Source: a phage
Length of the DNA: 64,000 bases
Sequence record: PZ386970.1
Reading direction: 5' to 3' (one strand)
In this document: positions 25,523 through 63,999 of the stretch, piece after piece
How positions within the stretch are numbered: position 1 is the stretch's first letter
Layout of the letters: every line of letters begins with the position of its first letter
Made by a program: the position numbers and the translations under genes
Notes under the pieces: model-generated
Databases searched by the model: none
What the model was told of the DNA's origin: nothing
Seen by the model: only the letters and a program-made list of their open reading frames with translations

Positions 25523-25552
25523 ATAGTATCACACATCCATGTGCTTGTAAAC
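25523..25552 (-). promoter_or_regulatory. Early promoter motif (GTTTAC-N18-TACTAT) at the 3' end of alt
   Basis: Minus-strand GTTTACAAGCACATGGATGTGTGATACTATCATCC upstream of the ORF starting at 25493. Confidence 0.45.
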
Positions 25553-27639
25553 TATCCTTGAACAAATTTAAACGGAACCGATTCCAAATCCATTAAAGAT
25601 GCTAACAGTTTCAATCCTTTAGGTGCACTAGTTTTTTCTACAAATGAGGCAAAAGATACCGGCTCATCTGATTCGATTTCACCAGTCATAGCAACCACCT
25701 CGCCTGTTTCCATGAGAACATCACCATCGTAAATGACTGCTTCATCCAACTGGTCTGAGGACATAACTTCAGCTTGAATAAATTTAAGGTTTGATTCTAA
25801 ACCTGCACCAGTATCAGATGACGCATCTGTAATTTTATTTATCTGCAAGAGAATGCCTCTAGGCAAAATAATTTCTTGCTCATTAGGGTGATTACTCAAC
25901 TGTCCCGGATAAATCACGTTAACTTTATGGGCGCCATCAATAGCCCATCCAACGTTAACACGGATTTGTTCTGGTGCATGCATAGCTGTTCTTACTTGAC
26001 TAGGAGAAATAGTAACACCTTCGTCATTATTGTCAATGTTAAGCTCTTTGCGAACTTCTTCAGGAGCAAGTCCAAGGGCAACGTTCTCTTTAAACCCACC
26101 GAAAATAATAGGAGCTAGTGAAGTGGAAACATAGTTTCTGAAGTAGAATACCTTATTTTTAACCATTGCTTCGTAAATAGGCATTCTGATAGACTGAGCT
26201 CTATATAACGTTAGTCCTTCAGGTAAACGGTCTCCATTTAAAAACGCCGAATCAAGTCCGTCAATAGCGCGTTTAACTTCATCTTCATCTGCAACATCGT
26301 AAAAATCTGGTTTATAACGTCCTAACAACATATTATTGATATCGGTATACGCAGAAGAGGCATATTCACGAATAGCTCGTTTTTCAGCAACAGAGTATTG
26401 TTTAGGGTCCCGATTCATTGTTATATTAAAGGTGCCTCTAGCCGATTCTCGTGCATAAGTATACATCACATTAGACAAGAACGCTGATTTACGTTGTTTC
26501 CAAGTTTTTTCAGATACTTCAGCTAAAACGTCGTCAGCCAGTTGGAAATTATCTCGTCTAAAATCTTCAAACCATTCGTCTTTAATAGAGTCTGCAATTT
26601 CGTTTGCAGCTTCAACAAAAGCAGCTAATGCTTTAACAGATGTTGTTTTTTCGGTTTTAATTTTCTTAGCAAACTTTTCTAAAGTTGGCTTAATAACACT
26701 ACCATAAGAAACTTCATCAGCAAATCTAAAGGATTCATCAATACGATTATAAATCTTATTTTCGATATCAGCAACTAAAGTGCCTTTTGCTGTGGACGAT
26801 GCTTGGGCTAGTACGATTTCATATGCTTCAGGAAGTAATTCGGCTGTAGCTGGGCCACTAACTTCTTTAGCAGAATTTTCGTATTTCTGGAATAACTCAC
26901 CTTCTTGGCGGTCAGCTTCTAAAGATTGGCTTGCTGCAATAGCACGACGAGAAATTTTAGTACGAGCAATAACAGGCTTATCTTTACGTTTTTCTTCTAC
27001 AGCAGCAATAGAACCAGCGATAGCCGTTTCTTTGGTGACCGTTTCGCCGGTCTTTTTACTCACATAAACTTCGCCAACATCAGAATCCACTTTCGTGTAC
27101 AACTCTGTGTTAATGTTAGGGATGCCTTTAATATCTTCAATGTTGGCATTTTTACGAACCATCATCACATAGGTGTGTTTACCTGTGAATTGATACATTG
27201 CCGACAATACTTTAAAACGACCACCGGTTTTAGTAGAAACTAAACGAGCAAGAAGAGTTTGAAGCTGTTGTCCACGTCCTTTCAATTTCTTGGTAGGGAA
27301 TCGGAACAGAACTGCATCCATACGAAGAGCTTTAACCTGTTCATATACTGTATTGAAAATAGTGTTGATTGCATCAATAGGAGCAGGACCAAGGCCATTT
27401 TTCAATTCAGCGAGATTACCCTTTTCAGATAGACTCATAATAACAACATGAGCGTATTTGTCGCCAAGTTTAACTTGTTTTACAGCGTCGCCTTCGGAAA
27501 GGTAAGAGAATAAACGAACTACAATATTTGTATCAACATCACCAATTTTCCAGACTTGTGGAACTTTAGCTTTAGGGTTCAAATTGACGACAGGAAGACT
27601 GCCTTCAGATTCAAACACTTCATTTAATTGTTCAGACAT
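25552..27639 (-). CDS. alt: Alt ADP-ribosyltransferase (packaged, modifies host RNA polymerase)
   Basis: 695-aa ORF (T4 Alt 682 aa) between ligase and gene 54 as in T4; C-terminal ART-like region. Confidence 0.82.
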   Translation of the reverse strand: MSEQLNEVFESEGSLPVVNLNPKAKVPQVWKIGDVDTNIVVRLFSYLSEGDAVKQVKLGDKYAHVVIMSLSEKGNLAELKNGLGPAPIDAINTIFNTVYEQVKALRMDAVLFRFPTKKLKGRGQQLQTLLARLVSTKTGGRFKVLSAMYQFTGKHTYVMMVRKNANIEDIKGIPNINTELYTKVDSDVGEVYVSKKTGETVTKETAIAGSIAAVEEKRKDKPVIARTKISRRAIAASQSLEADRQEGELFQKYENSAKEVSGPATAELLPEAYEIVLAQASSTAKGTLVADIENKIYNRIDESFRFADEVSYGSVIKPTLEKFAKKIKTEKTTSVKALAAFVEAANEIADSIKDEWFEDFRRDNFQLADDVLAEVSEKTWKQRKSAFLSNVMYTYARESARGTFNITMNRDPKQYSVAEKRAIREYASSAYTDINNMLLGRYKPDFYDVADEDEVKRAIDGLDSAFLNGDRLPEGLTLYRAQSIRMPIYEAMVKNKVFYFRNYVSTSLAPIIFGGFKENVALGLAPEEVRKELNIDNNDEGVTISPSQVRTAMHAPEQIRVNVGWAIDGAHKVNVIYPGQLSNHPNEQEIILPRGILLQINKITDASSDTGAGLESNLKFIQAEVMSSDQLDEAVIYDGDVLMETGEVVAMTGEIESDEPVSFASFVEKTSAPKGLKLLASLMDLESVPFKFVQG

Positions 27640-27676
27640 AGTGTTTTCCTTTTAGTAATAATTTATATTTATGCCA

Positions 27677-27698
27677 AAAAGAGCCCGAAGGCTCTTAA
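27677..27698 (-). terminator. Terminator between ligase operon and alt
   Basis: AAGAGCC-CGAA-GGCTCTT hairpin followed on the - strand by TTTTGG. Confidence 0.55.
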
Positions 27699-27883
27699 TC
27701 TACAATCGGGAGCAAAGTACGATAAACTTCAAAATTAGGGCCTTTTTCGTACCCATTAACGTTATCTACGAAAACCCGATACGAATTTTCATTAGGAAAA
27801 TCTAATATAATCTGAGAGCAAGAGGTGGAAACATCTCCACCGTCCTTCTTAGCTACAATAACTGTTTCTAAATAAGCTTTCAT
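27695..27883 (-). CDS. Hypothetical small protein between ligase and alt
   Basis: Start at ATG overlapping the ligase stop (TAATG); about 62 aa; no homology recognised. Confidence 0.4.
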   Translation of the reverse strand: MKAYLETVIVAKKDGGDVSTSCSQIILDFPNENSYRVFVDNVNGYEKGPNFEVYRTLLPIVD

Positions 27884-29376
27884 TATAAACCTGTCTGGGA
27901 CCACGGTCCAAATACGTCTTCAAATGAATCCGCTTCTGTTTTATCAAAACGGAACCCTTTAATAATTGGAAGGAAAATACCTACAGTGCCTTCACGTCCT
28001 TTAGAATGAACCCAACCATTGCATTCACAATCAGCAATACGTCCAATCAATTTACCTTCACGAGCTTCGGACATTAATCGTTCACGGTCCAAATCATGAC
28101 GCTCATCTAAAGGAATAAGAACCTTTACACCATCAACTGTTTTATGAGTTGTATCTTTAAAACCTGAACCACAATCGGTTGTAATACGACGACAACGTGA
28201 TACGAGTTCGACACCACCTAATTTGTTAGGGTCTTTAGAGTGTTCATAGTATCCTACAACTTCTAAAGCGATATCAATAACTTCTTTAAATTTAATTAGG
28301 TTCTTAGAGCGTTTGTTTTCCCAGTATGAATCACGGTTTTTAAGGATAATACCTTCAAGACCTTGGTCAACATATTTTTTATAAACCACTTTAGCTTCGT
28401 CGAGATTACGAACTATCTGATTTTCAATTGGCTCAATTCGCTTAAAGCCTTCAGCCATATTTTCAAGAGCAGCAAAACGAACATCATATTTCTGACCTTT
28501 AATTTTGCCATCAGAATAGACTTCATCTAAAGGAACATAGTCCCAGGCTTGAAGAACCATACCTTCCGCTTCTTTAGGAGAAATAGTCCGTTGAAGAGAT
28601 TTATTTGCTAAACCATTTGAAGTGCTACGGTCTGCAACTTGTACTTCTTCAGATTCTTCATTATCACCAAATAAGAACGACAGGTCATTTCCTGAGCTCA
28701 CAGCCTTTTTAATATCAAATGAATGATAAACTAATTCACCGTCGATTAAAACCCCATTAGGGTGTCTTTCACGAGCTTCTTTAGTCATTTCCATTAGTTC
28801 ATCCGCTAATAGAGTAAGACCATGATATTCATTACCGGCACGAGAAAAGAATTGAACACCATCATCGCGAACTTCAGCGAAACAACGAGCACCATCTGCT
28901 TTTAATTGGGCAAATGCCGGCCATTTAATATTTTTAGTAATCAATTTCTCATCATATGCAGATGCTAACATCTGTGGTTGCAATTGAATAAGTCCAGGCC
29001 ACACCTTATTCGCGATAGACACTGAAGCACCTACTTCAAGGTCGCGCATCATTACACGACGAAGGACTTCTACATCATCAGGTTTACCGTCAGCGATATA
29101 ACCCATGAGCTCTTTAATTGCAGCATTACCAGTGAGTTTACGACTGGCTAATGTGAACTCAATAAAATCCAACATGTCATCTAATTCAAGAAGACCATAC
29201 GCTTGAGACCTTTCACCTGGTCCTGGCCATTTCTTAATATAATACTGGATACCACGTGCATATGTTAAACGATACACACGTTCAAGCAATTTGTTGTCCT
29301 TATTTTTCTTAAGGATTTCTTGTTTTGTTTTAGTAGAACCGATCGCAGCTATTTGGTTTAAAATATCTAAAATCAT
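27883..29376 (-). CDS. 30: ATP-dependent DNA ligase
   Basis: 497-aa ORF; strong identity to T4 DNA ligase from memory (KNKDNKLLERVYRLTY..., AFAQLKADGARCFAEVR with adenylation lysine). Confidence 0.95.
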   Translation of the reverse strand: MILDILNQIAAIGSTKTKQEILKKNKDNKLLERVYRLTYARGIQYYIKKWPGPGERSQAYGLLELDDMLDFIEFTLASRKLTGNAAIKELMGYIADGKPDDVEVLRRVMMRDLEVGASVSIANKVWPGLIQLQPQMLASAYDEKLITKNIKWPAFAQLKADGARCFAEVRDDGVQFFSRAGNEYHGLTLLADELMEMTKEARERHPNGVLIDGELVYHSFDIKKAVSSGNDLSFLFGDNEESEEVQVADRSTSNGLANKSLQRTISPKEAEGMVLQAWDYVPLDEVYSDGKIKGQKYDVRFAALENMAEGFKRIEPIENQIVRNLDEAKVVYKKYVDQGLEGIILKNRDSYWENKRSKNLIKFKEVIDIALEVVGYYEHSKDPNKLGGVELVSRCRRITTDCGSGFKDTTHKTVDGVKVLIPLDERHDLDRERLMSEAREGKLIGRIADCECNGWVHSKGREGTVGIFLPIIKGFRFDKTEADSFEDVFGPWSQTGL

Positions 29377-29642
29377 TTGATGTCCTCGATTTTGGTTACG
29401 GTTCTATTATAAGCCACTTCATCTAGAAGCGATTTAAGCGTTTTCTGATAAGTGGTAATCCATTTACCGAGTCCTTCAACATAGTATTCTGAAATGTAGA
29501 TGAACCCTTGTTCAACACACTCTTTAAATATTTCTGCGTCTTTTACTGAACGAAACAATGGCCAGTCTCGAAAGAACATGTTAACGTGACCGTAGTCACG
29601 TGTGGTGTTTTTGCCATCTGTAATATCATGAACTACAAACAT
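29373..29642 (-). CDS. Hypothetical protein (30.1 position)
   Basis: 89-aa ORF coupled upstream of the ligase gene. Confidence 0.5.
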   Translation of the reverse strand: MFVVHDITDGKNTTRDYGHVNMFFRDWPLFRSVKDAEIFKECVEQGFIYISEYYVEGLGKWITTYQKTLKSLLDEVAYNRTVTKIEDIK

Positions 29643-29651
29643 AATTAACCC

Positions 29652-30467
29652 TTAACAATTTATAGACCAAGTCCATTTAGACGAATCTAAAGGAAAGTTT
29701 TGAATCGTCCACCATGGCCGCATATCGGTTGGTCCTTGGGTTCGCCAGGTATACGGATTCGACGGAGCGCCAATTTGATTAGGCCATGCACCTGGACTTG
29801 TTGCACCAGATTCTTTAAGTAAATCCGCCAATCGTTTTAAAAGGTCTTCACGATCTGAATCTGAATTATGCTCGGGTGGAACCAAACGAGATTCAATATC
29901 ATCCCACGTGTGCACACGTTGTGCAGTACGAGGAATATCATCACGTTCACCACGAGCCAACCAATAAATCGGTACATTAAGAATTTCTGCCGCATGGTCA
30001 CAGTGATGAGCTAAATCGTCAACGTAACAAATCACGTTATATTTTGTTTTAGCTAGTTCGAATAATTGTTCCTTTGAAGAATCATGACCACACATCATTA
30101 CTTCAGAAAAGGCGCCTGGGAACAAAGCATTCAAATTAAATTGTCTATTCAATCGAGCATCAATTGAATCACCTAGCGCCGTCACGGCTACAAAATTATA
30201 GTCTTCTTTTAGTTTATTGATAACTCGAAGAGCATCCGAATAAGGCGCTAAGTAACGAATAAAATCAGAGCGATTATATTTTTCTATTAATTGTTTACCG
30301 AGGTTATCATCGGTATTGAATAGTTTACCAGGAGAAATAAATTTTTCGTCCTGAATCATTTTTAAAATATGTTCTAATGGAAGATTATATTTTTGGGCAA
30401 AATAAGGAAGTCCAGATTGCCAGCTTAAACATACACCATCAATATCAGTCAAAATAGTAGGCTTCAT
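29652..30467 (-). CDS. HAD-superfamily phosphatase / 5'(3')-deoxyribonucleotidase-like protein with Trp-rich C-terminal tail
   Basis: 271-aa ORF; HAD motif I DIDGV at N-terminus and motif IV YVDD; 30.2 position. Confidence 0.6.
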   Translation of the reverse strand: MKPTILTDIDGVCLSWQSGLPYFAQKYNLPLEHILKMIQDEKFISPGKLFNTDDNLGKQLIEKYNRSDFIRYLAPYSDALRVINKLKEDYNFVAVTALGDSIDARLNRQFNLNALFPGAFSEVMMCGHDSSKEQLFELAKTKYNVICYVDDLAHHCDHAAEILNVPIYWLARGERDDIPRTAQRVHTWDDIESRLVPPEHNSDSDREDLLKRLADLLKESGATSPGAWPNQIGAPSNPYTWRTQGPTDMRPWWTIQNFPLDSSKWTWSINC

Positions 30468-30931: not shown

Positions 30932-31133
30932 TTATAATTTCAACATCAGCCCAATGACCGTATCCAGGTATACGGTCTTCGATAGATAAATTTCTGTCAT
31001 TTTTAGGCATTTTAATTGACGTAACGTATGGTTCTAAACGGTTTTCCGCGTAATATGGAAAAACGTCGGTTACACGATAAGTAACTTCAATCATTTCCGT
31101 ACCAAACAATTTCTGGATTAATTTATTCAACAT
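30915..31133 (-). CDS. Hypothetical protein
   Basis: 72-aa ORF in the tightly packed - strand 30.x array. Confidence 0.45.
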   Translation of the reverse strand: MLNKLIQKLFGTEMIEVTYRVTDVFPYYAENRLEPYVTSIKMPKNDRNLSIEDRIPGYGHWADVEIISVKDV

Positions 31134-31320: not shown

Positions 31321-31374
31321 ATTTTTCCACTTACTAAAGAAATCATTATACTCTAATCCGTCCTTGGATGTAAA

Positions 31375-31995
31375 CTACTTAATGAAATTAATTTCTACCG
31401 GATGAACAACAGGTTGAGCAGTGATATATTGAGTAATTGCTTTCATGACTAGAGCTTCAGAACCAGGATTTTTCTCAACGAATTCACGTGCTTGGTTATG
31501 AGCTTCAAGTTCACTTAGTAAACCACTTCGTTGACATCCACGGTCTTGAGTACCCTGTTCAGATAAAAAGGCGACGATGTATTTTTCATCGTCATACGGT
31601 TTAGACGGTTGAGCAAATGTTCCTTTACTTCCAAAAGGAGAGTTATGACGCCACATCACGCCGTGAGGAGTTTCAACCTTCGTATATTCGTGCGGGCCAT
31701 TTTTCTTAGTTTCTTTCCATGGAACTTCATGGACATGGGTATTAGGATTAGGACATTCAATAAAATGCTCATCTAAATCAGTCGAGAATATTAAAGTAAA
31801 ACAATTACTGAATTTACCAACACCTGCCTGATAAATTTTACCTTCAGAAGTTCTAATTTCACAAACCGAGCCGACATCAGTAACTTCTAAAACTTCAAAA
31901 GGCTCGATAAGGTCATATGAGAACATGTTTTTAAGGCGTGGAGTAATATCCCCATTTTTAAAATTCATTTTATAAAAAGTATTAACTTTAAACAT
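31375..31995 (-). CDS. Hypothetical protein (206 aa)
   Basis: Long ORF with good coding appearance; no recognisable motif; larger than any T4 30.x gene at this position as I recall. Confidence 0.55.
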   Translation of the reverse strand: MFKVNTFYKMNFKNGDITPRLKNMFSYDLIEPFEVLEVTDVGSVCEIRTSEGKIYQAGVGKFSNCFTLIFSTDLDEHFIECPNPNTHVHEVPWKETKKNGPHEYTKVETPHGVMWRHNSPFGSKGTFAQPSKPYDDEKYIVAFLSEQGTQDRGCQRSGLLSELEAHNQAREFVEKNPGSEALVMKAITQYITAQPVVHPVEINFIK

Positions 31996-32396: not shown

Positions 32397-32437
32397 TTTA
32401 TTCTCCAGATGTTTAAGTTGTTTGTTGGTACAGGTCT

Positions 32438-32466
32438 ATAATATCATAACCTGTACCAAAGTAAAC
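32438..32466 (-). promoter_or_regulatory. Early promoter motif (GTTTAC-N17-TATTAT) embedded in an 11-bp perfect inverted repeat
   Basis: Minus-strand GTTTACTTTGGTACAGGTTATGATATTATAGACCTGTACC; inverted repeat arms TTGGTACAGGT / ACCTGTACCAA. Confidence 0.5.
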
Positions 32467-32883: not shown

Positions 32884-32912
32884 ATAGTAACACATCCTAC
32901 AGGAGAGTAAAC
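32884..32912 (-). promoter_or_regulatory. Early promoter motif (GTTTAC-N17-TACTAT)
   Basis: Minus-strand GTTTACTCTCCTGTAGGATGTGTTACTATAGTC upstream of the ORF starting at 32842. Confidence 0.5.
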
Positions 32913-34126: not shown

Positions 34127-34183
34127 CTTATTTCCTTGTTGTTTGACGATAGATTAATAATACCATACTATTCGTAAAGCATA

Positions 34184-34492: not shown

Positions 34493-35063
34493 AAAAGTTT
34501 CGAATTTGTTCCCAATTCAGAGAACGAAGATTATTACGAGAGTACTGAATTACTTCAATACCAGCTTGTTTTAGAATGTCTGCCCAATTTTCAGGAGATC
34601 GGTCATATAATTCTGCATATACAACCTTTTTAATACCTGACTGCGTAATAGCTTTAGTGCAATCAGGACACGGAGAAAGCGTAGTATATAACGTAGCACC
34701 TTCAATAGAATTACCTTTACGAGCTGCAAACAAAATTGCATTCAATTCCGCATGGATTTCGTTATTAGCAGACCATGCACTATGAGCGGCCCGATGTTCT
34801 TTAGCCAAAACAAAATTATCCACCCGTCCAAATGCTGTAGTGCCTTCTTTATGCCCGGCAACGATGACCGGGCTTGGTTTATTCTTCAACCAACCGTTTT
34901 CGGATGCATGTTCGCAACAGTTTGTACCACCTGAAGGAGAGCCGTTATACCCAGTAGAGATAATGCGTCCATCTTTTTCAATGACCGCACCAACTTTCCA
35001 TGAACAACATTTTGATTCTTGAGAAATCAGATATGCAATCTGAAGGTATGTGCTAGCTTTCAT
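34482..35063 (-). CDS. cd: dCMP deaminase
   Basis: 193-aa ORF; zinc-binding deaminase motifs HAELNA and PCxxC; matches T4 Cd (193 aa). Confidence 0.95.
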   Translation of the reverse strand: MKASTYLQIAYLISQESKCCSWKVGAVIEKDGRIISTGYNGSPSGGTNCCEHASENGWLKNKPSPVIVAGHKEGTTAFGRVDNFVLAKEHRAAHSAWSANNEIHAELNAILFAARKGNSIEGATLYTTLSPCPDCTKAITQSGIKKVVYAELYDRSPENWADILKQAGIEVIQYSRNNLRSLNWEQIRNFCGE

Positions 35064-36055
35064 TATTGAACCTTATTAATATAAGTTAACAACTCTTTAG
35101 TTTGTTCCCAACTGATGCACGCATCGGTAATGGAAACGCCATAGGACATATTATCAGAAATTTTTTGATTTCCTTCATGTAGGAACGATTCTATCATAAT
35201 TCCTTTGACCAAATCATTAGCTGCTAAATTTTTACCAATACCAATTTGATTGCTATAATGCCCATCAGCGTTTGCATGGCTACAGTCAACCATTACATAA
35301 TGATTCAGACCTACTGCCCTTGCTTTGTTAGAAGCTTCTTGAATATCAGAAGAATGATAGTTCGGGCCGTTGGTCCCGCCACGCAATACGATATGCGTAT
35401 TCTGATTACCTTCAGCTTCAACAATGCCTACAGTACCATCGACGTCCATACCCATATACCGATGAGGCCAGGCGGCACTATACATCGCGTCTGTAGCTAC
35501 TTTAATAGAACCATTGGTTGCGTTCTTGAAGCCTACGCACATCGGTAGACCTGAAGCAATTTCACGATGTGTCTGACTTTCAGTCGTACGGGCGCCAATA
35601 GCAACCCATGAGAAAATACCAGAAAGATACTTAATCGTGAATGGGTCTAATACTTCAGTTGCTAATGGAAGTCCCATACGTAGAAGTTTACGACACAATG
35701 TTCGTGCAACTATAAGACCGTGGTTCATATCAAAACTTCCGTCAAGATATGGATCATTTACAAGACCTTTCCAACCTACGGTAGTTCGAGGCTTTTCAAA
35801 ATAAACGCGCATCACTAACAGAACATTAGGAAGACGAGTTTGAAGTTCAGCCAGACGTTTGCCGTATTCAACAGCAGCAATAGGGTCATGAATTGAACAA
35901 GGACCTACAACAATAAGTTTGCGTGGGTCTTCACCATTCATAATCGAATTAACTTGTTCGCGATGAGAAGCCACTTGTGATGCGTAAGCTTCCGACAAAG
36001 GAATAATCTCAGCCAGTTCTTTTGGAGAAATAAGTTTTCCGACGACAGGTAACAT
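35063..36055 (-). CDS. 3-deoxy-D-arabino-heptulosonate 7-phosphate (DAHP) synthase, class I (AroG/F/H family)
   Basis: 330-aa ORF; blocks LIVVGPCSIHDP, VMRVYFEKPRTTVGWKGL, GARTTESQ, VGFKNATNGSIKVA, IVLRGG, ESFLHEGNQ, SITDACI are near-identical to E. coli AroG; stop overlaps the cd start (TAATG). Confidence 0.9.
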   Translation of the reverse strand: MLPVVGKLISPKELAEIIPLSEAYASQVASHREQVNSIMNGEDPRKLIVVGPCSIHDPIAAVEYGKRLAELQTRLPNVLLVMRVYFEKPRTTVGWKGLVNDPYLDGSFDMNHGLIVARTLCRKLLRMGLPLATEVLDPFTIKYLSGIFSWVAIGARTTESQTHREIASGLPMCVGFKNATNGSIKVATDAMYSAAWPHRYMGMDVDGTVGIVEAEGNQNTHIVLRGGTNGPNYHSSDIQEASNKARAVGLNHYVMVDCSHANADGHYSNQIGIGKNLAANDLVKGIMIESFLHEGNQKISDNMSYGVSITDACISWEQTKELLTYINKVQ

Positions 36056-36412: not shown

Positions 36413-36441
36413 TTCGATTTCCTCATTGTGTTGGTAGAGTT

Positions 36442-36471
36442 ATAGTATCACAACTCCACCATGTTGTAAAC
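36442..36471 (-). promoter_or_regulatory. Early promoter motif (GTTTAC-N18-TACTAT)
   Basis: Minus-strand GTTTACAACATGGTGGAGTTGTGATACTATAACTC upstream of the ORF starting at 36412. Confidence 0.5.
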
Positions 36472-38537: not shown

Positions 38538-38594
38538 TTAGATTTCCTCAATTATCCATAGGAGCATTATACTCTGCTCCTGAGAGTTTGTAAA

Positions 38595-38819
38595 CTATTT
38601 TACTAAAGATTCAATATACTCGTGAAGAGCTTTAGTCGCTACTGCCCACTTATTCTGATATTCATTTTTCAGATTAGCACGAGACTGAACTAACAATCGG
38701 TCATTAGTCGGAGGCAAAGATTCTAATCGTTGAATCTGGCGCCCATAAATCATAGCCGCCATTTCAGATTCATAGATAAGCCCTTTAATGTATTCATGCT
38801 GTTCTTTAGTCATTGGCAT
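38595..38819 (-). CDS. Hypothetical protein
   Basis: 74-aa ORF. Confidence 0.45.
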   Translation of the reverse strand: MPMTKEQHEYIKGLIYESEMAAMIYGRQIQRLESLPPTNDRLLVQSRANLKNEYQNKWAVATKALHEYIESLVK

Positions 38820-39941: not shown

Positions 39942-40003
39942 AATTTTCTCCTCGTGTTATTGATAAAAGCCATAGTAACACCTTCCTTGGTGTTTGTAAA
40001 CCA

Positions 40004-41137: not shown

Positions 41138-41184
41138 TCAGTTAGTTTTTTTTAAATTGTACCACAATCCTTGTGGTATGTAAA

Positions 41185-41595
41185 CTACTTTTTCTTATGT
41201 TGGATATTCCAAGGCGGGTTGAACTTTTTGATAAAAAGTGGTTCTTCAAGGTCCATTGTTGCGATGGTCATTGAACCAAGTTCATTGGTGACTGAAAGGT
41301 CAAAACATTGGCGGGCCCAGAATTCAACCTTTTTGCCTTGCATTAAGGCATCCAAAATCATAAGTGATTTTCTTGAATCTGAAGTCTGGTCTTTTCGATT
41401 TATGGCTGTTCGATAATAGTTAATGCGTTTCTTTAAATTCTTGGTTTTACCAATATACACAAGTTCGTCATCTATAGCAATAGCGTATATGACATTTTTC
41501 TTATTAGGGACATCAACTGTTTTAATTGTTGCATCTTCTAATAGCTCCAATTCTGTATATTTAATAAAGGAATATTCGGCGGCAATATCTTTCAT
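41185..41595 (-). CDS. denA: Endonuclease II (host DNA degradation)
   Basis: 136-aa ORF (T4 DenA 136 aa); GIY-YIG-like N-terminus (VIYAIAIDDELVYIGKTKNLKKRINYY). Confidence 0.85.
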   Translation of the reverse strand: MKDIAAEYSFIKYTELELLEDATIKTVDVPNKKNVIYAIAIDDELVYIGKTKNLKKRINYYRTAINRKDQTSDSRKSLMILDALMQGKKVEFWARQCFDLSVTNELGSMTIATMDLEEPLFIKKFNPPWNIQHKKK

Positions 41596-47147: not shown

Positions 47148-47210
47148 TTTATTCTCCTCTTCACTTTTATTTGATAGGGCTATTATAACATAACCCTATC
47201 CGATTGTATA

Positions 47211-47615
47211 CTACTTTTTAAAAGTTTTTTGCAAAAGTTTGATGATTTCGTCGACGTTGGTTTCATCTACGATACAATGGATTTTTGTTACACCTAAAGT
47301 TATACCTTCGTTAGTAGGTTGAGGCTTTACTAAATCTACCTCAGTAAAGTACTCAATAAAGTATTTAAACTCGTCAGGATAAATCTCAAAATAAGTTTCA
47401 ATTTCACCACCGGCAGAACATACAGTACCATCTTCCATAGTTACACTTACTACGTTTGACGTATCGCTATCATAATCAGGTTCCATTCCGTTTACAACAA
47501 AACTAGGCCCGTGGAGTTCAATCAGTTTTAACATCTTAGCGTTATTATGTGGTGCTTCTTGAACAAAGTCGTCTTTAAATAAAGGGTTAATGATATAAGA
47601 TTTTCCGATTTCCAT
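47211..47615 (-). CDS. Hypothetical protein (frd.2 position)
   Basis: 134-aa ORF with early promoter motif upstream (47645-47673). Confidence 0.5.
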   Translation of the reverse strand: MEIGKSYIINPLFKDDFVQEAPHNNAKMLKLIELHGPSFVVNGMEPDYDSDTSNVVSVTMEDGTVCSAGGEIETYFEIYPDEFKYFIEYFTEVDLVKPQPTNEGITLGVTKIHCIVDETNVDEIIKLLQKTFKK

Positions 47616-47644
47616 TTTGATTTCCTCATGTTGTTGATATGTCT

Positions 47645-47673
47645 ATACTAATACATCCAGGGAAGAAGTAAAC
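47645..47673 (-). promoter_or_regulatory. Early promoter motif (GTTTAC-N17-TAGTAT)
   Basis: Minus-strand GTTTACTTCTTCCCTGGATGTATTAGTATAGACATATC directly after the gene 32 terminator. Confidence 0.5.
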
Positions 47674-47702: not shown

Positions 47703-47724
47703 AAGGGAGACCGAAGTCTCCCAA
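47703..47724 (-). terminator. Terminator after gene 32
   Basis: GGGAGAC-CGAA-GTCTCCC hairpin followed on the - strand by TTTTGAG; next early promoter motif 30 bp downstream. Confidence 0.7.
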
Positions 47725-50908: not shown

Positions 50909-50973
50909 ATGAACCTCTTGTTCAGTTAGTCAACTTGTCTATAGTAACATACTCATTTGAAAGCGTAAACTGG

Positions 50974-50981
50974 TATAAATA
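50974..50981 (+). promoter_or_regulatory. Late promoter TATAAATA (gene 34)
   Basis: Exact TATAAATA about 30 bp upstream of the gene 34 ATG. Confidence 0.6.
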
Positions 50982-51011: not shown

Positions 51012-54000
51012 ATGGCCGACATCAAACGTAAGTTCAGAGCCGAAGACGGTCTGGACGCCGGTGGCGACAAGATTGTTAACGTAGCATTAGCCGACCGTAC
51101 AGTAGGTACTGATGGCGTAAACGTTGACTTCCTGGTACAAGAAAACACCGTTCAAGTATATGATTCTACGCGTGGATATAACAAAGGATTTGTTGTTCTT
51201 TATGACAACCGTTTATATCAAGCAATAAATGATATCGTGTCTCCTTCAGGGGCATTTAACCTTTTACAATGGCGTGCAGTTCGTACTGATGCACAATGGA
51301 TAACTGTCGCTTCTGGGGCTTATCAACTTTCTTCAGGTGAATCGATTTCGGTTAACACTGGTGCCGGCAATGATATGGTTTTCACGTTGCCAAATGCGCC
51401 GGTTGATGGCGATACTGTTGTTTTGGCTGATATTGGTGGAAGAACCGGGACAGTTAAAGTACAGATTAACGCGTCTGTACAGAGTATTTTAAACTTTAGA
51501 GGTGAACAGGTTCGTACGGTTTTAATGACGCGACCACGTTCACAACTATTGTTTGTGTTTAGTAATCGTTTGTGGCAGATGTATATTACCGATTATGGTA
51601 AAGAATCAATCACTGTTACACCTGCGACACCATATCAAGCACAAGCAAATGATTTTATCGTTCGTCGTTTTACTAGTGCAGCACCAATCAACATTACACT
51701 TCCACGTAATGCTAACAATGGTGATATAATCAGCCTAGTCGATTTAGATAGATTAAACCCACTGTATCATACATTTGTTAAAACATTTGATGATACAACG
51801 TCTATTGGTGAAGTCGGGACTCATATTGCCGAAGGCAGAAATGACTCTGACGCGTTTTTTGTTTTTGATGCTGCAAATAGTTTATGGCGTATATGGGAAG
51901 GCGACCAGAAATCGCGTCTTCGTATTATCCGTGCGGATTCAAATATTCGTCCAAATGAAGAAGTTCTTATTTTTGGCACAAATAACATTACTACAGGAAC
52001 TATTAATCTTACGCTGCCTTCCGGAATTTTGAGTGGTGACACTGTTAAAATTTCAATGAACTACATGCGTAAAGGCCAAACGGTAAAAATTAAAGCTGCC
52101 GAAGGTGATACAATTGCTTCCACTGTTGCATTGCTTCAGTTCCCTAAACGTTCTGAATATCCACCTGATGCTCAATGGGTTTCTGTTACTGAACTAGAAT
52201 TCAATGGCACTACTTCATATGTTCCTGTATTAGAATTAGCGTATATCGAAGACACCGTTGCTGGTACACGTTATTGGGTTGTTCAACAAAACGTCCCAAC
52301 CGTAGAACGTGTTGATGCTGGAACTGATGCTACACGAGCTCGTTTAGGTGTTATTGCTCTTGCTACTCAAGCGCAAGCAAATGTTGATTTAGAGAATACT
52401 CCTGCTAAAGAAGTTGCTATTACTCCTGAAACGTTGGCAAATCGTACAGCAACTGAAGCTCGACGTGGTATCGCTAAAATTGCTACAACAGCACAAGTTA
52501 ACCAGAATTCCACAGCAACATTTGTGGACGATACTATTGTTACGCCTAAAAAACTAAATGAGCGTACAGCAACTGAAACTCGCCGTGGTCTTGCTGAAAT
52601 TGCTACTCAGGCTGAAACCGATGCAGGTCTTGATGACACAACGATTATTACGCCTAAGAAATTACAGGCACGTCAGGGTTCTGAAACACTATCTGGTATA
52701 GTTAAATATGTATCAACTACTTCTGCTACTCCTGCTGAAACTCGTGGGACTGCAGGCACTAACGTTTATAATAAAACCGTAAATAATTTAACTATTTCTC
52801 CTAAAGCCCTTGACCAATATAAAGCAACTTATGCTCAACAAGGTGCAGTAATTTTAGCTGTTGATAGTGAAGTAATTGCTGGACAATCTCAGTCTGGATA
52901 CTCTCACGCTGTAGTAACTCCTGAAACACTACATAAGAAAACTTCTACTGATGGACGTATTGGTTTAATTGAAATTGCTACGCAAGCAGAAACTAATGCT
53001 GGGACTGATTATACACGTGCAGTAACGCCTAAGACGTTAAATGATAGGAAAGCTACGGAAGGATTATCCGGCATAGCCGAAATTGCTACGCAAGTTGAAT
53101 TTGATACTGGAACTGATGATACTCGTATCTCGACTCCACTGAAAATTAAAACTCATTTTGATTCTTCTGACCGTACCAGTGTTAATTCTGATTCCGGACT
53201 TATTGAAGAAGGAACCTTGTGGAACCATTATACTCTTGATATTTCTAAAGCAAATGAAACACAACGTGGTACACTTCGCGTAGCGACTCAGGCAGAATCT
53301 AATGCAGGAACTTTAGATGATGTTCTTATTACTCCTAAAAAGCTTTTAGGGACTAAGTCCACTGAAACGTCTGAAGGCGTAATTAAGGTTGCTACTCAGG
53401 CTGAAACTGTAACAGGAACTTCTGCTAATACTGCTGTATCTCCTAAGAATTTAAAATGGATTGTCCAAAACGAACCAACATGGGCTGCTACTACAGCAAT
53501 TCGCGGATTCGTTAAAACTTCATCCGGTTCAATTACATTCGTTGGCAACGATACTCAAGGTAGTACCCAGGACCTGAATCTTTACGAGAAAAATAGTTAT
53601 GCTATTTCTCCATATGAATTAAACCGTGTATTAGCAAATTATTTGCCATTAAAAGCAAAAGCTGCTGACGCAAATTTATTAGATGGACTAGATTCATCTC
53701 AGTTCATTCGTAGAGATATTGCACAGACGGTTAATGGTTCACTAACCTTAACCCAACAAACTAACCTGAGTGCCCCTCTTGTATCAACTAGTACTGCTAC
53801 GTTTGGTGGTTCGGTATCTGCCAATAGTACATTGACTATTTCTAATACGGGAACAGCTACTCGTCTGATTTTTGAGAAAGGACCTCAAACTGGAACTAAC
53901 CCAGCGCAGACGATGAGTATCAGAGTTTGGGGAAATCAGTTTGGTGGCGGTTCAGATACAACACGTTCTACTGTATTTGAAGTTGGTGATGAAACGTCTA

Positions 54001-59700: not shown

Positions 59701-59900
59701 GGTCAGGAACCACTAGTGCTACGGGTAACCATGCTCATACCGTGGGTATTGGTGCTCATACCCATTCGGTAGGTATTGGTGCTCATACTCATACTGTTGC
59801 AATTGGTTCCCATGGACATACAATAACTGTAAATGCCACAGGAAATACAGAAAACACAGTTAAAAACGTTGCTTTTAACTATATCGTTCGTTTAGCATAA
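56754..59900 (+). CDS. 37: Long tail fibre distal subunit gp37 (receptor-binding needle with His-X-His repeats)
   Basis: 1048-aa ORF (T4 gp37 1026 aa); N-terminus shares motifs with gp34/gp36; C-terminal repeated HxH motifs ([24 protein letters not shown]). Confidence 0.9.
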
Positions 59901-59903
59901 GGA

Positions 59904-59926
59904 GAAGGGACTTCTGTCCCTTTTTA
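59904..59926 (+). terminator. Terminator after gene 37
   Basis: GGGAC-TTCT-GTCCC followed by TTTTTAT. Confidence 0.7.
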
Positions 59927-59930
59927 TAAT

Positions 59931-60482
59931 ATGAAACTCTATCACTATTATTTTGACACTAAAGAATTTTACAAAGAAGAAAATTATAAACCATTAAAAG
60001 GCGTAGGATTTCCGGCTCATTCGACACCAAAAAAACCTTTAGACCCTAAAGAAGGCTATGCTGTTATATTTGACGAACGCGAACAAGAATGGGTATATGT
60101 TGAAGACCATCGCGGAAAAACAGTATGGACTTATGATAAACAAAAAATTGTTATTGACACTCCAGGTGCTCTTCAAAATGTTACTACAGAAGAACCTGGT
60201 GAATTTGACATTTGGACCGACGACGGGTGGAAGGAAGATGAAGCATATAAACGTGTAGTTCAACGTGATAAGAAAATTCATGAACTCTATAAATTATTCA
60301 GTGTTTTAAGTTCTCTTATTGACGCAGAGGTTGCTAATAGAGAAGAAAAACGAAAATTTAAAGAGCTCAAAAAATTCTTTGCCCTTTTAGAAAAACATGA
60401 ACATCTTGGCGGCGAATTCCCTAAATTCCCTGACCTTGAAAACAAATCTATTATCAAAGCGATTATAAATATCTTTAAGTAA
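59931..60482 (+). CDS. 38: Tail fibre assembly chaperone gp38 (T4 type)
   Basis: 183-aa ORF; MKLYHYYFDTKEFYKEENYKP... and FFALLEKHEHLGGEFP match T4 gp38 from memory. Confidence 0.88.
   Translation: MKLYHYYFDTKEFYKEENYKPLKGVGFPAHSTPKKPLDPKEGYAVIFDEREQEWVYVEDHRGKTVWTYDKQKIVIDTPGALQNVTTEEPGEFDIWTDDGWKEDEAYKRVVQRDKKIHELYKLFSVLSSLIDAEVANREEKRKFKELKKFFALLEKHEHLGGEFPKFPDLENKSIIKAIINIFK
60464..60471 (+). promoter_or_regulatory. Late promoter TATAAATA (holin t), inside the gene 38 3' end
   Basis: Exact TATAAATA about 20 bp upstream of the t ATG. Confidence 0.55.
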
Positions 60483-60491
60483 GGAGGTATT

Positions 60492-61151
60492 ATGGCAACA
60501 CCAAAAGTGTCATTTTCGCCTAGTGATATTCTATTTGGGTTGCTAGATCGTATTTTCAAAGATAACGCTACTGGAAAGGTTTTAATGTCCCGAGTAGCGG
60601 TAATTATTCTTTTGTTCCTAATGGCACTAATATGGTACAAAGGAAGTATTTTGCTGGATTATTATGTAAGATCTAAGTATGATACTTATACTGAAATAAT
60701 CCAAAAAGAACGAGCTTTACGTTTTGAATCTGCGGCTCTAGAACAACTGCAAATAGTTCATATCTCATCTGGTGCAGATTTTAGTGCTGTGTATTCTTTC
60801 AGACCTAAAAACTTAAATTATTTCGTCGACCTTATAGCTTATGAAGGCAAACTGCCTAGCACAATTTCTGAAAAGTCCCTTGGAGGATTCCCAGTAGATA
60901 AAACGGCCAATGAATATATAATTCATTTAAGTGGCCGTCATTTCTCGTCTAAATCAGAATTTGCATTTTTGCCTACAAAATCTAAGACTGCCGAACTTTC
61001 TTATATGTATAGTTGTCCATACTTTAATTTGGATAACATCTATGCTGGAACTGTGACGATGTATTGGTATAAGGGGAATAATATACTTGAGGAAGATCGC
61101 TTAGCGGCTATATGCAACCAAGCGGTCCGAATACTAGGAAGGGCTAAATAA
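60492..61151 (+). CDS. t: Holin T
   Basis: 219-aa ORF; near-identical to T4 holin t (218 aa) incl. single N-terminal TM segment and ...ARILGRAK C-terminus; TATAAATA at 60464-60471. Confidence 0.92.
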   Translation: MATPKVSFSPSDILFGLLDRIFKDNATGKVLMSRVAVIILLFLMALIWYKGSILLDYYVRSKYDTYTEIIQKERALRFESAALEQLQIVHISSGADFSAVYSFRPKNLNYFVDLIAYEGKLPSTISEKSLGGFPVDKTANEYIIHLSGRHFSSKSEFAFLPTKSKTAELSYMYSCPYFNLDNIYAGTVTMYWYKGNNILEEDRLAAICNQAVRILGRAK

Positions 61152-61424
61152 TTAGTTGTTAGAATACATCGCTAAATGACGATAAATATTTTCAAAACCT
61201 TCATTGAATTCACTAATCAGTGTTTTCTTTTCTTCGGCAGTTAAATTTGTAATTAGTTTTCTGAACGAATTCTGATTTAGCTGCCGACCATCTTTTTTAA
61301 TTCCAATCTCATTCAAGAATCCGATGAAACTTGCTCGGTCTTCAACAATATCTTCCCTAGAGAATTTAATCAAAATAGAAGCAATAGTAATAATTTCACG
61401 TACGATTTCAATATCTTTATTCAT
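61152..61424 (-). CDS. asiA: Anti-sigma70 factor AsiA
   Basis: 90-aa ORF; MNK.I..VREIIT.ASILIKFSREDIVE.RA.FI.FLNEIG matches T4 AsiA from memory. Confidence 0.9.
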   Translation of the reverse strand: MNKDIEIVREIITIASILIKFSREDIVEDRASFIGFLNEIGIKKDGRQLNQNSFRKLITNLTAEEKKTLISEFNEGFENIYRHLAMYSNN

Positions 61425-61470
61425 AACGTTTTATTCATTCCACTTAATTGATAGGAGTATAGTACCATTA

Positions 61471-61632
61471 TCAGTGTTGATTGTAAACGACTTTTTCTAC
61501 GCTTTTAACGTAATCAATGTAGTCTTCCTGTTCGTACGAGTTTAAGGCTAAGAACGAGGCTAATAGTTCATTATAGACTAAAGCCTCACGCTCACGTTCG
61601 GCCTCTACTACGTTCTGAAGATTATGACTCAT
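61471..61632 (-). CDS. Hypothetical small protein
   Basis: Start moved to internal Met (MSHNLQNVV...) to limit overlap with upstream ORF; about 53 aa. Confidence 0.35.
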   Translation of the reverse strand: MSHNLQNVVEAEREREALVYNELLASFLALNSYEQEDYIDYVKSVEKVVYNQH

Positions 61633-61921
61633 ATCGTTCCTTATAGCTATCAATGTAGTCCTGTATGTCAAAGAATGACATTTCATATTCTAGGACATTA
61701 AGAGCCCGTTCTTCAGTATAGTCAGAACCAAAGACGATAGTGATTTCACCAGGCTTCATATGGTTGAAATCGACACTAAAAGGAATACGAGAACACACTT
61801 CGTCTGCCATATCTACGATAACACTACGGCACACTTCTCGGTTAACCTGATAAAGCTCTGCAAGTTCTTCACAACGAATAACAAGTTCAGTGGCAGGATT
61901 TTCTTTGATTTTAGTAAACAT
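61622..61921 (-). CDS. arn: Arn-like anti-restriction protein (inhibitor of McrBC) - positional call
   Basis: 99-aa acidic ORF in the arn position between asiA and motA; assignment by synteny and size rather than remembered sequence. Confidence 0.5.
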   Translation of the reverse strand: MFTKIKENPATELVIRCEELAELYQVNREVCRSVIVDMADEVCSRIPFSVDFNHMKPGEITIVFGSDYTEERALNVLEYEMSFFDIQDYIDSYKERYES

Positions 61922-61995
61922 AGTCTTTACCCTTATGTTTTTGTTTGCGTTTAGATTGAAGTTCTGATTTCTTCTTGTCCTTATGGACAGAAGCC

Positions 61996-62223
61996 TTATT
62001 GAAATCGTGTTTTGCTACAAGATTGTTCATAATGATTTATAACCTCGTTTAAACATTTATCGGTAAAAGAAAACTTTTTAGCCACAGAACATTCGATAAT
62101 GTGCTCTTTCAAATCTTTAGGGTCGGTATAACCCATCTCAGTAATAAAGTGGCGAATTAAAGCTTTATTCTTATCATTAACAGAATTAAAATAATCTGCT
62201 TTAGAATCAATTATTCTCATCAT
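61996..62223 (-). CDS. Hypothetical protein
   Basis: 75-aa ORF in the arn-motA array. Confidence 0.45.
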   Translation of the reverse strand: MMRIIDSKADYFNSVNDKNKALIRHFITEMGYTDPKDLKEHIIECSVAKKFSFTDKCLNEVINHYEQSCSKTRFQ

Positions 62224-62488
62224 CTAATTTCCTTAATTGATATTGCAACGAGCTAATAATTTCTTCGTTCATTTTAATATACATGTCGCGCAAGAAAGGT
62301 TTTAACCCATCACGAATAATTGCTAACGTATCACCTTTACATAAATTAACCAAATAAGGATGATCTAAAGCATCCCAACCAGGCTGATTAGCATACATAC
62401 CATAATTTTCTTCCATCATAGCATTCAGGCGTTTGATATGATTAATGTGGGCTTCAATAGCATCAATCTGGAGTTGTTTAAGATTCAT
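62207..62488 (-). CDS. Hypothetical protein
   Basis: 93-aa ORF. Confidence 0.45.
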   Translation of the reverse strand: MNLKQLQIDAIEAHINHIKRLNAMMEENYGMYANQPGWDALDHPYLVNLCKGDTLAIIRDGLKPFLRDMYIKMNEEIISSLQYQLRKLDDENN

Positions 62489-62949
62489 TAGTAAAGGTCC
62501 TCAGAGTAAAGTTCTTTTTCATTACCACCACGTTCAATACGTACTTGTCCAGCGTAAGTTGCAATAATCATTGCTTCTTCACGTGTCCAATAATTACTAT
62601 ATTGGTCAATAAACCCTTGGTCATCATCACAAACTTGTTGAGTAACTAATTGAGGTTTAACTACATCTAAAACTTCTGCCATATCTTTAGAATAATGACG
62701 AGCACCTGGAATAATAAGAGTTCGTCCATCTTTTAATTTAAAACGGTTGGCTGCACAGACAATTCGTCGTTGATACTTTTGGTTTTCATCCCAATACAAA
62801 GTCTGCCAACAGATTTCAGGAACTTCATCTAAAACATTTTGTTCTGTATATTCACCACCATAAGAAGCTAATTTGGCAGCCAGACTTTCCGGGGTCTCAC
62901 GCGACAAAGCTTTATCTAACAGAGCTAAACGTTCTTTAAAAGTTTTCAT
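62488..62949 (-). CDS. Hypothetical protein
   Basis: 153-aa ORF coupled to neighbours. Confidence 0.5.
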
Positions 62950-63290
62950 TTAAACCATCCTTTAATACGTTGCCACAAAGTTTTCTGCTGAGCTTTGTTA
63001 ACACCAATTGAACGAATAACCGGTTGTGACTGCTGATATTCTTTATAATCTTCTTTATAGATTTCGTAAGCTGCATCAACAAATGAACTGATCGCTGCCA
63101 TGTAGTTTTTACGTATACCGCCAGGAGCTACTCCATTAGGGAATTCAGAATTTTCGCGAATAATTAAATATAGCCCAGCTCTAACTTTAACGATAGTTCC
63201 AAGATAAGCCCCGTGGTACCAAATATCCCATCCTTCCTGAGTAGGTTCTGCACATTTACGAAGTTCGTTAATAATATTCAGCTTATTCAT
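62946..63290 (-). CDS. Hypothetical protein
   Basis: 114-aa ORF. Confidence 0.45.
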
Positions 63291-63300
63291 TATGTATTCC

Positions 63301-63933
63301 TCACAGTACGTTAGTTACAAGGGTAATGATTTCTTTGGACACATTAGGGAAGTCAATGTAAGTATATTTACCACCGATTTTAATCTTAACATCATTTTCA
63401 AGAGAAGTAAACAGCTTTGATTCAGTTTCTGACATGTTGTATGCAAAGATTCTAAGAGCGCCATCTCGTCGAATTTCAATTTGGCGAATACCTAGAACTC
63501 GTTTTGCAAATCGAACTTCTAAGTTACTACGGTTTTCACCAATTTCTTTAACTTCAACTTTATCTTTAATATTTTCAAAAACAAAGTTTGCTAGTTCATG
63601 CATTTCAGGAGTAACTCCACGTGCTTTTCTAGTGTTACGTTTCTGAAGAAGTTCTGGAGCATTTTCTTGGGCAAAGAGGTCTGCAGCTTTTTGGATAATA
63701 TCCATTGCTTCGCCTGTTGCTACAAGTCCATCACCGGATTTTTCGACTAAACCTTTCTTAATCAATACACCAATGTTAGAGTTAACAACTGATGCATTGT
63801 ATTCTGCTTCCAGAGCTTCACGGACATTGGCAGCAGTGGTGAAGTTGTTCTTAATGATATAAACCATTATTGCAGCAGTTTTTTCATTCAGAGCGTTTTC
63901 AGAAGCTTTGATGATGTAAGTAACTTTAGACAT
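63301..63933 (-). CDS. motA: MotA middle-transcription activator
   Basis: 210-aa ORF (T4 MotA 211 aa); MSKVTYIIKAS... and NSNIGVLIKKGLVEKSGDGL match T4 MotA from memory; early promoter motif upstream. Confidence 0.85.
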   Translation of the reverse strand: MSKVTYIIKASENALNEKTAAIMVYIIKNNFTTAANVREALEAEYNASVVNSNIGVLIKKGLVEKSGDGLVATGEAMDIIQKAADLFAQENAPELLQKRNTRKARGVTPEMHELANFVFENIKDKVEVKEIGENRSNLEVRFAKRVLGIRQIEIRRDGALRIFAYNMSETESKLFTSLENDVKIKIGGKYTYIDFPNVSKEIITLVTNVL

Positions 63934-63970
63934 TTTATTTCTCCAAATTAGTATTTGTTTTGATAGGTCT

Positions 63971-63999
63971 ATAATATCATGTTTGAAGCAAAAGTAAAC
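63971..63999 (-). promoter_or_regulatory. Early sigma70-type promoter (GTTTAC-N17-TATTAT) for motA
   Basis: Minus-strand GTTTACTTTTGCTTCAAACATGATATTATAGACC; member of the conserved motif family in this window. Confidence 0.5.

Follow-up and report, generated by a model that had tools for sequence, protein, structure and literature searches.

The 64,000-nucleotide stretch of phage DNA held in sequence record PZ386970.1 (hereafter the window, meaning this whole stretch) carries 15 copies of an extended promoter motif on its - strand, in which a GTTTAC-type -35 element is followed by a TAnnnT -10 hexamer. These sites are very probably the immediate-early promoters of a member of Mosigvirus, a genus of T4-like phages, about six of the 15 containing stem-loops of the type published as PeSLs. 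A first-pass annotation of the window had proposed sigma70-dependent phage early promoters, and this assignment is supported by sequence comparison: the sites display every T4-type sequence feature and possess counterparts in both RB69 and T4.

Identification of the promoter family

Mosigvirus genomes, among them JS09, ESh15 and NBG1, share 96-98% identity with the window; these phages are RB69-like relatives of T4. The G+C content of the window is 38%. According to the JS09 annotation of this region, late structural genes lie on the + strand and the prereplicative clusters (alt, 30.x, cd, pseT, alc, rnlA, nrd, td, frd, 32, rnh, asiA, arn and motA) on the - strand. A pattern search with GTTTAC-N15-20-TANNAT returned 15 matches where 1.67 were expected, each of them on the - strand, a number that none of 100 shuffled sequences reached, and the longer form GTTTAC-N16-19-TAYTATAGA gave four matches against 0.00 expected. 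We also built a position weight matrix (PWM) from two blocks only, one comprising the UP element and the -35 element and the other TGn and the -10 element, with all downstream sequence excluded. Scanning the whole sequence with this matrix separated the family cleanly: 14 sites scored 22.7-35.8 bits and the next best match 14.5, and no match on the + strand of the window reached 12. The motA site, which is cut by the window edge, was added to these 14 as the fifteenth member. A further GTTTAC...TAAGAT match within motA (63383-63412) obtained a PWM score of only 14.0 and was taken as chance.

All seven copies listed in the first-pass annotation (at 63971, 47645, 36442, 32884, 32438, 25523 and 10190) were found in place on the - strand; its count of at least seven is nevertheless too low, the family comprising 15 members, and the span it gave for the family, 25523-63999, leaves out its own site at 10190. 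The eight further members lie at 61459 (asiA), 50941 (rnh), 47182 (frd.1, with GTATAC as -35), 41156 (rnlA), 39972 (alc), 38566 (ORF231c), 31345 (30.5) and 13029 (24.2), with gene identities taken from the JS09 and RB69 annotations (Table 1).

Table 1. Predicted promoters of the early family in the window, with associated elements. PWM scores are in bits; RB69 counterparts are early promoters (Pe) from the list of Nolan et al. 2006; fold energies and z-scores refer to RNA.
Feature	Position	Strand	PWM	RB69 counterpart	Details
motA early promoter	63971..63999	-		Pe:162713 (53/55 identical)	GTTTAC, 17-nt gap, TGa, TATTAT, AGAC; UP element cut by window end; ATG 37 nt after -10
Promoter upstream of asiA	61459..61488	-	33.7	Pe:160217	GTTTAC, 18-nt gap, TGg, TACTAT; T4 counterpart at 161182
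rnh early promoter	50941..50970	-	27.1	Pe:149309	
Gene 34 late promoter TATAAATA	50974-50981	+			Divergent from rnh early promoter 50941
frd.2 early promoter	47645..47673	-	27.0	Pe:146013 (drives RB69ORF245c)	GTTTAC, 17-nt gap, TAGTAT, no TGn
Canonical terminator	47705-47722				Precedes frd.2 promoter 47645
frd.1 early promoter	47182..47211	-	33.7	Pe:145300 (perfect stem GATAGGGCT/AGCCCTATC)	-35 GTATAC, -10 TATAAT
Stem-loop at frd.1 promoter	47173-47200				Spans -10; arms GATAGGGTT/AGCCCTATC; fold -16.5 kcal/mol, z -6.15
rnlA early promoter	41156..41185	-	34.3	Pe:139277 (69/69 identical)	
Spacer stem-loop at rnlA promoter	41160-41178				CCACA...TGTGG; fold -8.3 kcal/mol, z -2.77
alc early promoter	39972..40001	-	24.2	Pe:138093 (68/69 identical)	
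Spacer stem at alc promoter	39977-39994				ACACC...GGTGT; fold -7.3 kcal/mol, z -1.46
RB69ORF231c-homologue early promoter	38566..38595	-	27.9	Pe:136687	
Stem at 38566 promoter	38560-38581				AGGAGC/GCTCCT; encloses AGAGTATAAT; fold -12.2 kcal/mol, z -2.71
cd.2 early promoter	36442..36471	-	30.2	Pe:134561	
Stem at cd.2 promoter	36432-36461				TGGTGGAGTT/AACTCTACCA; encloses GTGATACTAT; fold -16.9 kcal/mol, z -4.61
30.8 early promoter	32884..32912	-	34.3	Pe:132117	Weak G.T-rich stem only, fold z +0.44
30.7 early promoter	32438..32466	-	30.0	Pe:131670	
11-bp stem at 30.7 promoter	32425-32459				TTGGTACAGGT/ACCTGTACCAA; spans TGn/-10; fold -17.4 kcal/mol, z -5.33
30.5 early promoter	31345..31375	-	27.7		GTTTAC, 19-nt gap, TATAAT, no TGn; ATG 24 nt downstream
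alt.-3 early promoter	25523..25552	-	31.9	Pe:125323 (65/69 identical)	alt stop codon overlaps -35 (at -2); weak 5-bp stem GGATG/CATCC
Early-promoter-like site within gene 24.3	13029..13058	-	22.7	Pe:112451 (68/69 identical)	Lowest score of the set
Early promoter of small ORF between genes 23 and 24	10190..10219	-	35.8	Pe:109605 (66/69 identical)	
Gene 24 late promoter	10226-10233	+			Divergent from early promoter 10190

Sequence conservation and genomic context

The -35 element reads GTTTAC exactly in 14 of the 15 sites, and a TAnnnT hexamer is present at -10 in every one: TACTAT in eight cases, TATAAT in three, TATTAT in two and TAGTAT and TACAAT in one each. The earlier description of the -10 elements as TAnTAT variants rather than TATAAT was therefore mostly right, but fails at the three sites that carry the consensus hexamer. 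The gap between GTTTAC and the -10 element measures 17 nucleotides (nt) in four sites, 18 nt in ten and 19 nt in one, or 16-18 nt when counted from TTTACA as the -35 hexamer, as in the reading TTTACA-17-TATAAT given by the generic sigma70 scan. The extended -10 motif TGn is found in 11 sites, with T in 80% of the family at position -15 and G in 73% at -14, and upstream of the -35 element an A-rich UP element (71-86% A in four successive columns at about -40 to -45) is seen as it is in T4. Less of the proposed TATAGAC tail stood up to inspection: AGAC follows the -10 element in only five of the 15 sites, the conservation downstream consisting instead of a C at -3 and of T-A-T-c-A-A around +1.

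The position of the sites relative to genes is equally uniform. All 15 are oriented along the - strand, together with the early genes motA, asiA, alc, rnlA, frd.1/.2, cd.2, 30.5/30.7/30.8, alt.-3 and rnh, and 13 of them are followed by a Shine-Dalgarno (SD) sequence and an ATG 24-41 nt after the -10 element. For the seven sites recognised initially, placed at the time 25-45 bp upstream of an open reading frame (ORF) start, the distance from the end of the -10 element to the start codon is 29-41 nt, within the range claimed. On the upstream side, the stop codon of a co-directional ORF lies at -2 (TA/GTTTAC) or -5 from the G of the -35 element at eight of the 15 sites (for example 25552-25554, 47211-47213 and 41185-41187), so that the A-rich UP element is coding sequence there. 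At two other sites the neighbour is a late promoter: the TATAAATA late motifs of genes 24 and 34 occupy, on the opposite strand, the UP-element position of the early sites at 10190 and 50941, and each pair thus forms a compact divergent early/late promoter.

Counterparts in T4, RB69 and related phages

When the same PWM was applied to 130 kb of T4, it identified approximately 38 - strand sites, where T4 early promoters are expected, and the per-position consensus proved to be the same in the window and in T4: the A-tract at about -42, GTTTAC(a/t), T-15/G-14 of the TGn motif, TAcTAT, the C at -3 and TATCAA at +1. This agrees with published descriptions, in which T4 early promoters consist of UP, -35, TGn and -10 elements with further consensus regions (Hinton 2010, PMC2988021) and the early consensus of PST/T4 is given as TTTACW-N17-TAYWAT (Comeau 2014, PMC4122927). 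Differences are confined to detail: after the -10 element Mosigvirus promoters often have AGAC(C/T) and those of T4 often ACAAC or TACCC, and a 17-nt gap occurs in four of the 15 window sites versus two of 34 in T4. Ten window sites have positional counterparts in T4 that were detected by the PWM, namely motA, asiA, rnh, frd.1, alc, cd.2, 30.8, 30.7 and alt.-3, plus frd.3 in T4 versus frd.2 in the window; for the cd.2 site at 36442 the counterpart is the early promoter named Pe133295 in the T4 record, between cd.2 and cd.3. The activity of T4 early promoters has been tested experimentally.

We also applied the PWM to 55 T4-like loci from IMG/VR, a sample of 21-kb loci around rnlA, and obtained 160 sites, every one of them on the strand of the genes. 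The motifs would have spoken against promoters had they been equally frequent at non-promoter positions, and this was seen neither in these loci nor in the window. A simple pattern scan of IMG/VR with AAAGNNGTTTAC-N17-18-TANTAT was too unspecific and was discarded in favour of these loci.

For RB69, early promoters were predicted by an iterative hidden Markov model (Nolan et al. 2006, Virol J 3:30; 57 according to the text, 58 in Additional File 3). Alignment of RB69 segments to the window matched 14 of our 15 sites in sequence to entries of this list, most of them with 88-100% identity over about 70 nt, and four (Pe:134561, 146013, 149309 and 160217) with 54-78%. The exception is the site at 31345 upstream of 30.5, the sole window site that has no entry in the RB69 list and hence an extra site relative to RB69; conversely, the weak RB69 Pe:136969 has no strong counterpart in the window, and RB69ORF245c, the gene driven by Pe:146013, is absent from it.

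Several observations weigh against this assignment. TGn is missing at 47645, 38566, 31345 and 13029, the -35 element at 47182 is GTATAC, and the site at 13029 combines the lowest score with a location within coding sequence, the 24.2 start codon following 88 nt downstream. A generic sigma70 scan was barely enriched (83 matches in 20 kb versus 65.5 expected) and could not have singled out these sites; combined with a terminator scan, it did not discriminate the family, and the stems described below were not called as terminators. Furthermore, activity and timing are taken over by homology from T4 and RB69, the RB69 list being a prediction and not a map of 5' ends, and a literature search for a genome-wide map of T4 transcription start sites found nothing usable. 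With regard to the 13029 site, a hairpin (CCGAGACAGCTCGG, 12985-13020, - strand) is located between it and the 24.2 start codon and is kept in RB69.

If the sites act as they do in T4, unmodified host RNA polymerase would bind them once the DNA enters the cell: the C-terminal domains of its alpha subunits would contact the A-rich UP element at about -40 to -45, followed by recognition of G-TTTAC(A/T), an effective spacer of 16-18 nt, TGn, TAYTAT/TATAAT and the initiation region, and motA, asiA, alc, rnlA, the frd, cd and 30.x clusters, alt.-3 and rnh would then be transcribed leftward, on the - strand.

Inverted repeats within the promoters

The extended conserved context that the first-pass annotation had noticed is in part the shared T4-type consensus described above, and in part a site-specific inverted repeat at about six of the 15 sites that is not shared sequence at all; the other nine sites have no convincing stem. 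At 47182, 36442, 32438 and 38566 the TGn/-10 region lies in the loop of the stem, the arms covering approximately -25 to -17 and -6 to +3, whilst at 41156 and 39972 the stem lies in the spacer. Folded as RNA, the four -10-enclosing stems reach -12 to -17 kcal/mol with z-scores of -2.7 to -6.2. The stem of the 30.7 promoter is kept in T4 (129890), in RB69 Pe:131670 and in 14 IMG/VR relatives. We initially regarded the inverted repeat flanking the -10 element as an undescribed feature, and a literature search on dyad symmetry, cruciforms and hairpins at T4 early promoters returned nothing relevant; novelty was nonetheless ruled out, since the repeat is the stem-loop of the published PeSLs. These were defined as a stem-loop with G-T pairs located between the -35 and -10 elements or overlapping the -10 element, for which a terminator or attenuator role and recombinational shuffling were proposed (Arbiol 2010, PMC2839356), and were later extended to PST/T4 and nt-1/KVP40 (Comeau 2014, PMC4122927).

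The pairing was analysed by comparing each upstream arm with its own downstream arm and then with those of other promoters. Pairing within a promoter exceeded cross-pairing both for the window alone (p=0.0015) and for 49 promoters from the window and T4 (p<1e-4), p-values that overstate independence because the promoter sets contain orthologues. Stems of at least 7 bp are found in 27% of 173 unique T4-like promoters and in 2.9% of cross-paired controls, an approximately 9-fold difference. In a fixed register the mean pairing is unshifted and the distribution has a heavy tail, seven of the 49 promoters having at least 8 of 9 pairs versus 1.8% of cross-pairs: the stems are thus the feature of a subclass and not a property of all promoters. 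Stem sequences vary between promoters at constant register, as is apparent from double changes between paralogues, such as GACAAGACT/AGTCTTGTC at T4 20583 versus GACAAGATT/AATCTTGTC at T4 57961, or GGGACC/GGTCCC at the T4 motB promoter (7186) versus AGGAGC/GCTCCT at window 38566, again in the same register.

The distribution of the stems follows that of the upstream genes. Of the promoters that abut an upstream ORF, 59% carry a stem, versus 17% of the rest (Fisher p=1.3e-8; the 172 unique sequences, taken from loci L141-L195, T4 and the window, lack phylogenetic independence), and in the window none is found at the divergent sites 10190 and 50941 nor at 47645, which is preceded by a canonical terminator. 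Positions within the stems that are not Watson-Crick pairs comprise 12 G.T, one A.C and four others; the sense RNA folds better than the antisense (-14.1 versus -11.8 kcal/mol, p=1e-6); and no U-tract follows any of 47 stems, which therefore do not qualify as canonical intrinsic terminators. The bias towards abutting ORFs, the G.T excess, the better folding of the sense strand and the lack of a U-tract together favour a role at the RNA level over both a DNA cruciform and a classical intrinsic terminator. The transcript of the upstream gene is their most likely target, where they would serve as attenuators of a non-canonical kind or as hairpins at the 3' end. Since RNA initiated at the promoter begins downstream of the 5' arm, the hairpin would form only in read-through RNA arriving from the upstream gene, and would act on that transcript and not on the promoter's own.

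From this it is possible, albeit tentatively, to regard the -10-enclosing stem-loops as RNA elements serving the upstream gene, either as attenuators or as hairpins that protect its 3' end, with about one third of T4-type early promoters being dual-purpose, read first as DNA and then as RNA; the position of the stems within the promoter would then follow from the upstream ORF ending right at the -35 element. Against such a role it must be held that the G.T over A.C excess is marginal when set against the cross-pair null of 53:25 (p ~0.05, calculated by hand), that the missing U-tracts deprive the stems of the usual termination signal, and that the sole terminator assay in the literature concerns a G/C-rich phi1 stem. 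Should the dual-purpose interpretation be true, its new part would be stem action that is RNA-level, sense-strand and free of a U-tract, the attenuator role having already been guessed in the PeSL papers.

Two T4 promoters (NC_000866) display very long palindromes centred on the -10 element, CCTAGAATTGTGA-ATATAT-TATCACAATTCTAGG at ~65771 (ipIII) and AATTGTGA...TCACAATT at ~66469 (e). Each of these holds TGTGA-N8-TCACA, which resembles a CRP site with the wrong spacing. The symmetric -10 element also suggested a divergent promoter on the opposite strand; no -35 element was seen by eye on that strand for 32438, and the idea was dropped.

Weighing of alternative explanations

As an AT-rich genome with 38% G+C, in which generic sigma70-like matches are common, the window could be thought to produce such motifs by chance or composition. 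This explanation, whose probability we regard as practically nil, is refuted by the shuffled sequences and by the strand bias of 15:0 in the window and 160:0 in the relatives, and is at odds with the fixed placement upstream of SD and ATG and with the conservation of the sites across genera. That the sites are instead MotA/AsiA-dependent middle promoters or gp55-dependent late promoters is very improbable: the phage does encode motA and asiA and the string TGCTTCA is present in the spacer of the motA promoter, but all 15 sites have the GTTTAC-type -35 element that is absent from middle promoters, and this TGCTTCA lies 7 nt from the -10 element and not 11-13 nt. In middle promoters the MotA box, (a/t)3TGCTTtA centred at -30, takes the place of the -35 element, and in late promoters TATAAATA occupies -13 to -6. 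Both kinds of motif exceed expectation in the window, at positions other than those of the early sites. None of the 13 MotA-box matches (TGCTTNA-N11-13-TANNNT) coincides with any of the 15 sites, and the 19 late-motif matches lie elsewhere, mostly on the + strand, two of them back-to-back with early sites. The MotA-box matches (13 versus 3.8 expected) fall on the - strand in 12 cases, for example at 12661-12686, 17818-17842, 34157-34181 and 53227-53252; one match is antisense within gene 34, the gene that contains oriG in T4.

Two further explanations concern the shared context and the inverted repeats. In the one, the context would be inherited rather than selected for binding of RNA polymerase, the sites being copies of a PeSL promoter-leader cassette homogenised by recombination or gene conversion, as the mobile-cassette idea of Arbiol 2010 (PMC2839356) and Comeau 2014 (PMC4122927) would have it. 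Related sequence does recur in non-orthologous places: the spacer of the rnlA site at 41156 is common to T4 167057, 50944 and 2429, window 38566 and the motB promoter of T4 (7186) are alike, no difference separates the alt.-3 promoter of T4 from its alc promoter, and leaders and SD sequences are shared, such as ATCAACAACATGAGGAAA at 25523, 47645 and 36442. In addition, the extra RB69 gene RB69ORF245c, which lies between Pe:146013 and frd.2, is flanked by two leader/SD copies (14176-14205 and 14439-14468 in the RB69 locus L020), whilst the window has a single copy (47613-47642) joined directly to frd.2; this indel is consistent with recombination between the repeated leader sequences, and together with the shared spacers it would fit modular shuffling. 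On the other hand, spacers and stem arms have for the most part no sequence relationship from one site to the next, the conserved columns are those contacted by RNA polymerase, which is a signature of functional constraint and not of recent copying, and orthologous promoters keep their place across T4, RB69 and the window. We therefore consider this explanation, which overlaps with that of conserved early promoters, rather unlikely, though more serious than the others. In the other, the repeats would act as DNA, either as a cruciform or hairpin that exposes or buries the -10 element, for instance in early shut-off, or as the target of a structure-specific recombination protein. The arms flank the -10 element symmetrically, often with a 10-nt loop, the shut-off of early promoters has been described as incompletely understood (PMC3014915), and a stem-binding recombination protein was speculated upon by Arbiol 2010 (PMC2839356). 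A DNA cruciform should, however, tolerate G.T and A.C equally, which contrasts with the 12 to 1 ratio on the sense strand, and the superior folding of the sense RNA likewise argues against action as DNA; moreover, the stems cluster at sites where the gene upstream, running in the same direction, ends at the -35 element, which points to the upstream transcript, and as only ~27-40% of promoters have stems, a general shut-off would not be explained. Action as DNA is hence quite improbable.

Among the indels relative to related phages, that of RB69ORF245c lies at promoter leaders, whilst those of JS09_0212 and of a DAHP-synthase gene lie away from promoters. Blocks of homology shared with T4 end near promoters, an observation confounded by intergenic divergence. 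The DAHP synthase-like gene (phospho-2-dehydro-3-deoxyheptonate aldolase) occupies 35063-36055 on the - strand and is flanked by cd and cd.2; JS09 has this gene, RB69 and T4 lack it, and a 19-nt overlap marks the junction.

Relation to known stem-loop systems

The feature itself is already known, from T4 early promoters, from the RB69 predictions of 2006 and from the PeSLs of 2010 and 2014, and the present findings have little importance beyond annotation, where they make it possible to outline this phage's early transcription units. They do confirm that T4 and Mosigvirus have kept the same early-promoter architecture, and they make small additions to the PeSL literature, namely the link to abutting genes, the absence of U-tracts and the more stable folding of the sense RNA.

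Hairpins that enclose a promoter and gate translation are known from the T4 genes e, soc, 49 and I-TevI, where, by the same logic as in the window, the promoter's own transcript lacks the 5' arm and only read-through RNA can fold (PMC3014915). The window stems differ from these in that their 3' arms, at -6 to +3, do not include the SD sequence, so that no translational masking of the downstream gene is expected, and in that the known cases are late promoters. An arrangement closer to that of e and soc was observed at the T4 regB promoter (NC_000866 ~62768), where a spacer arm pairs with the downstream SD region (CTCTTGACTG/CAGTTAAGAG), and at a 30.7-like promoter upstream of position 401 in IMG/VR locus L016 (CTCCGTTGTAT/ATACAACGGAG); in both, read-through RNA, and not the promoter's own transcript, could mask the ribosome-binding site.

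Among the known systems, the PeSLs are likewise close to the window stems. Terminator activity and the formation of mini-circles have been demonstrated only for those of phi1/RB49, whose stems are poly-G/poly-C, whereas the window stems are A/U-rich, 6-11 bp long and free of a U-tract. In their overall organisation the two nevertheless agree: an early promoter is combined with a stem-loop containing G-T pairs, and an SD sequence and a start codon stand at the 3' end of the cassette, as is found for the promoter cassettes of the window. An association with the gain or loss of ORFs may be a further common trait, the one clear case in the window being the RB69ORF245c indel.

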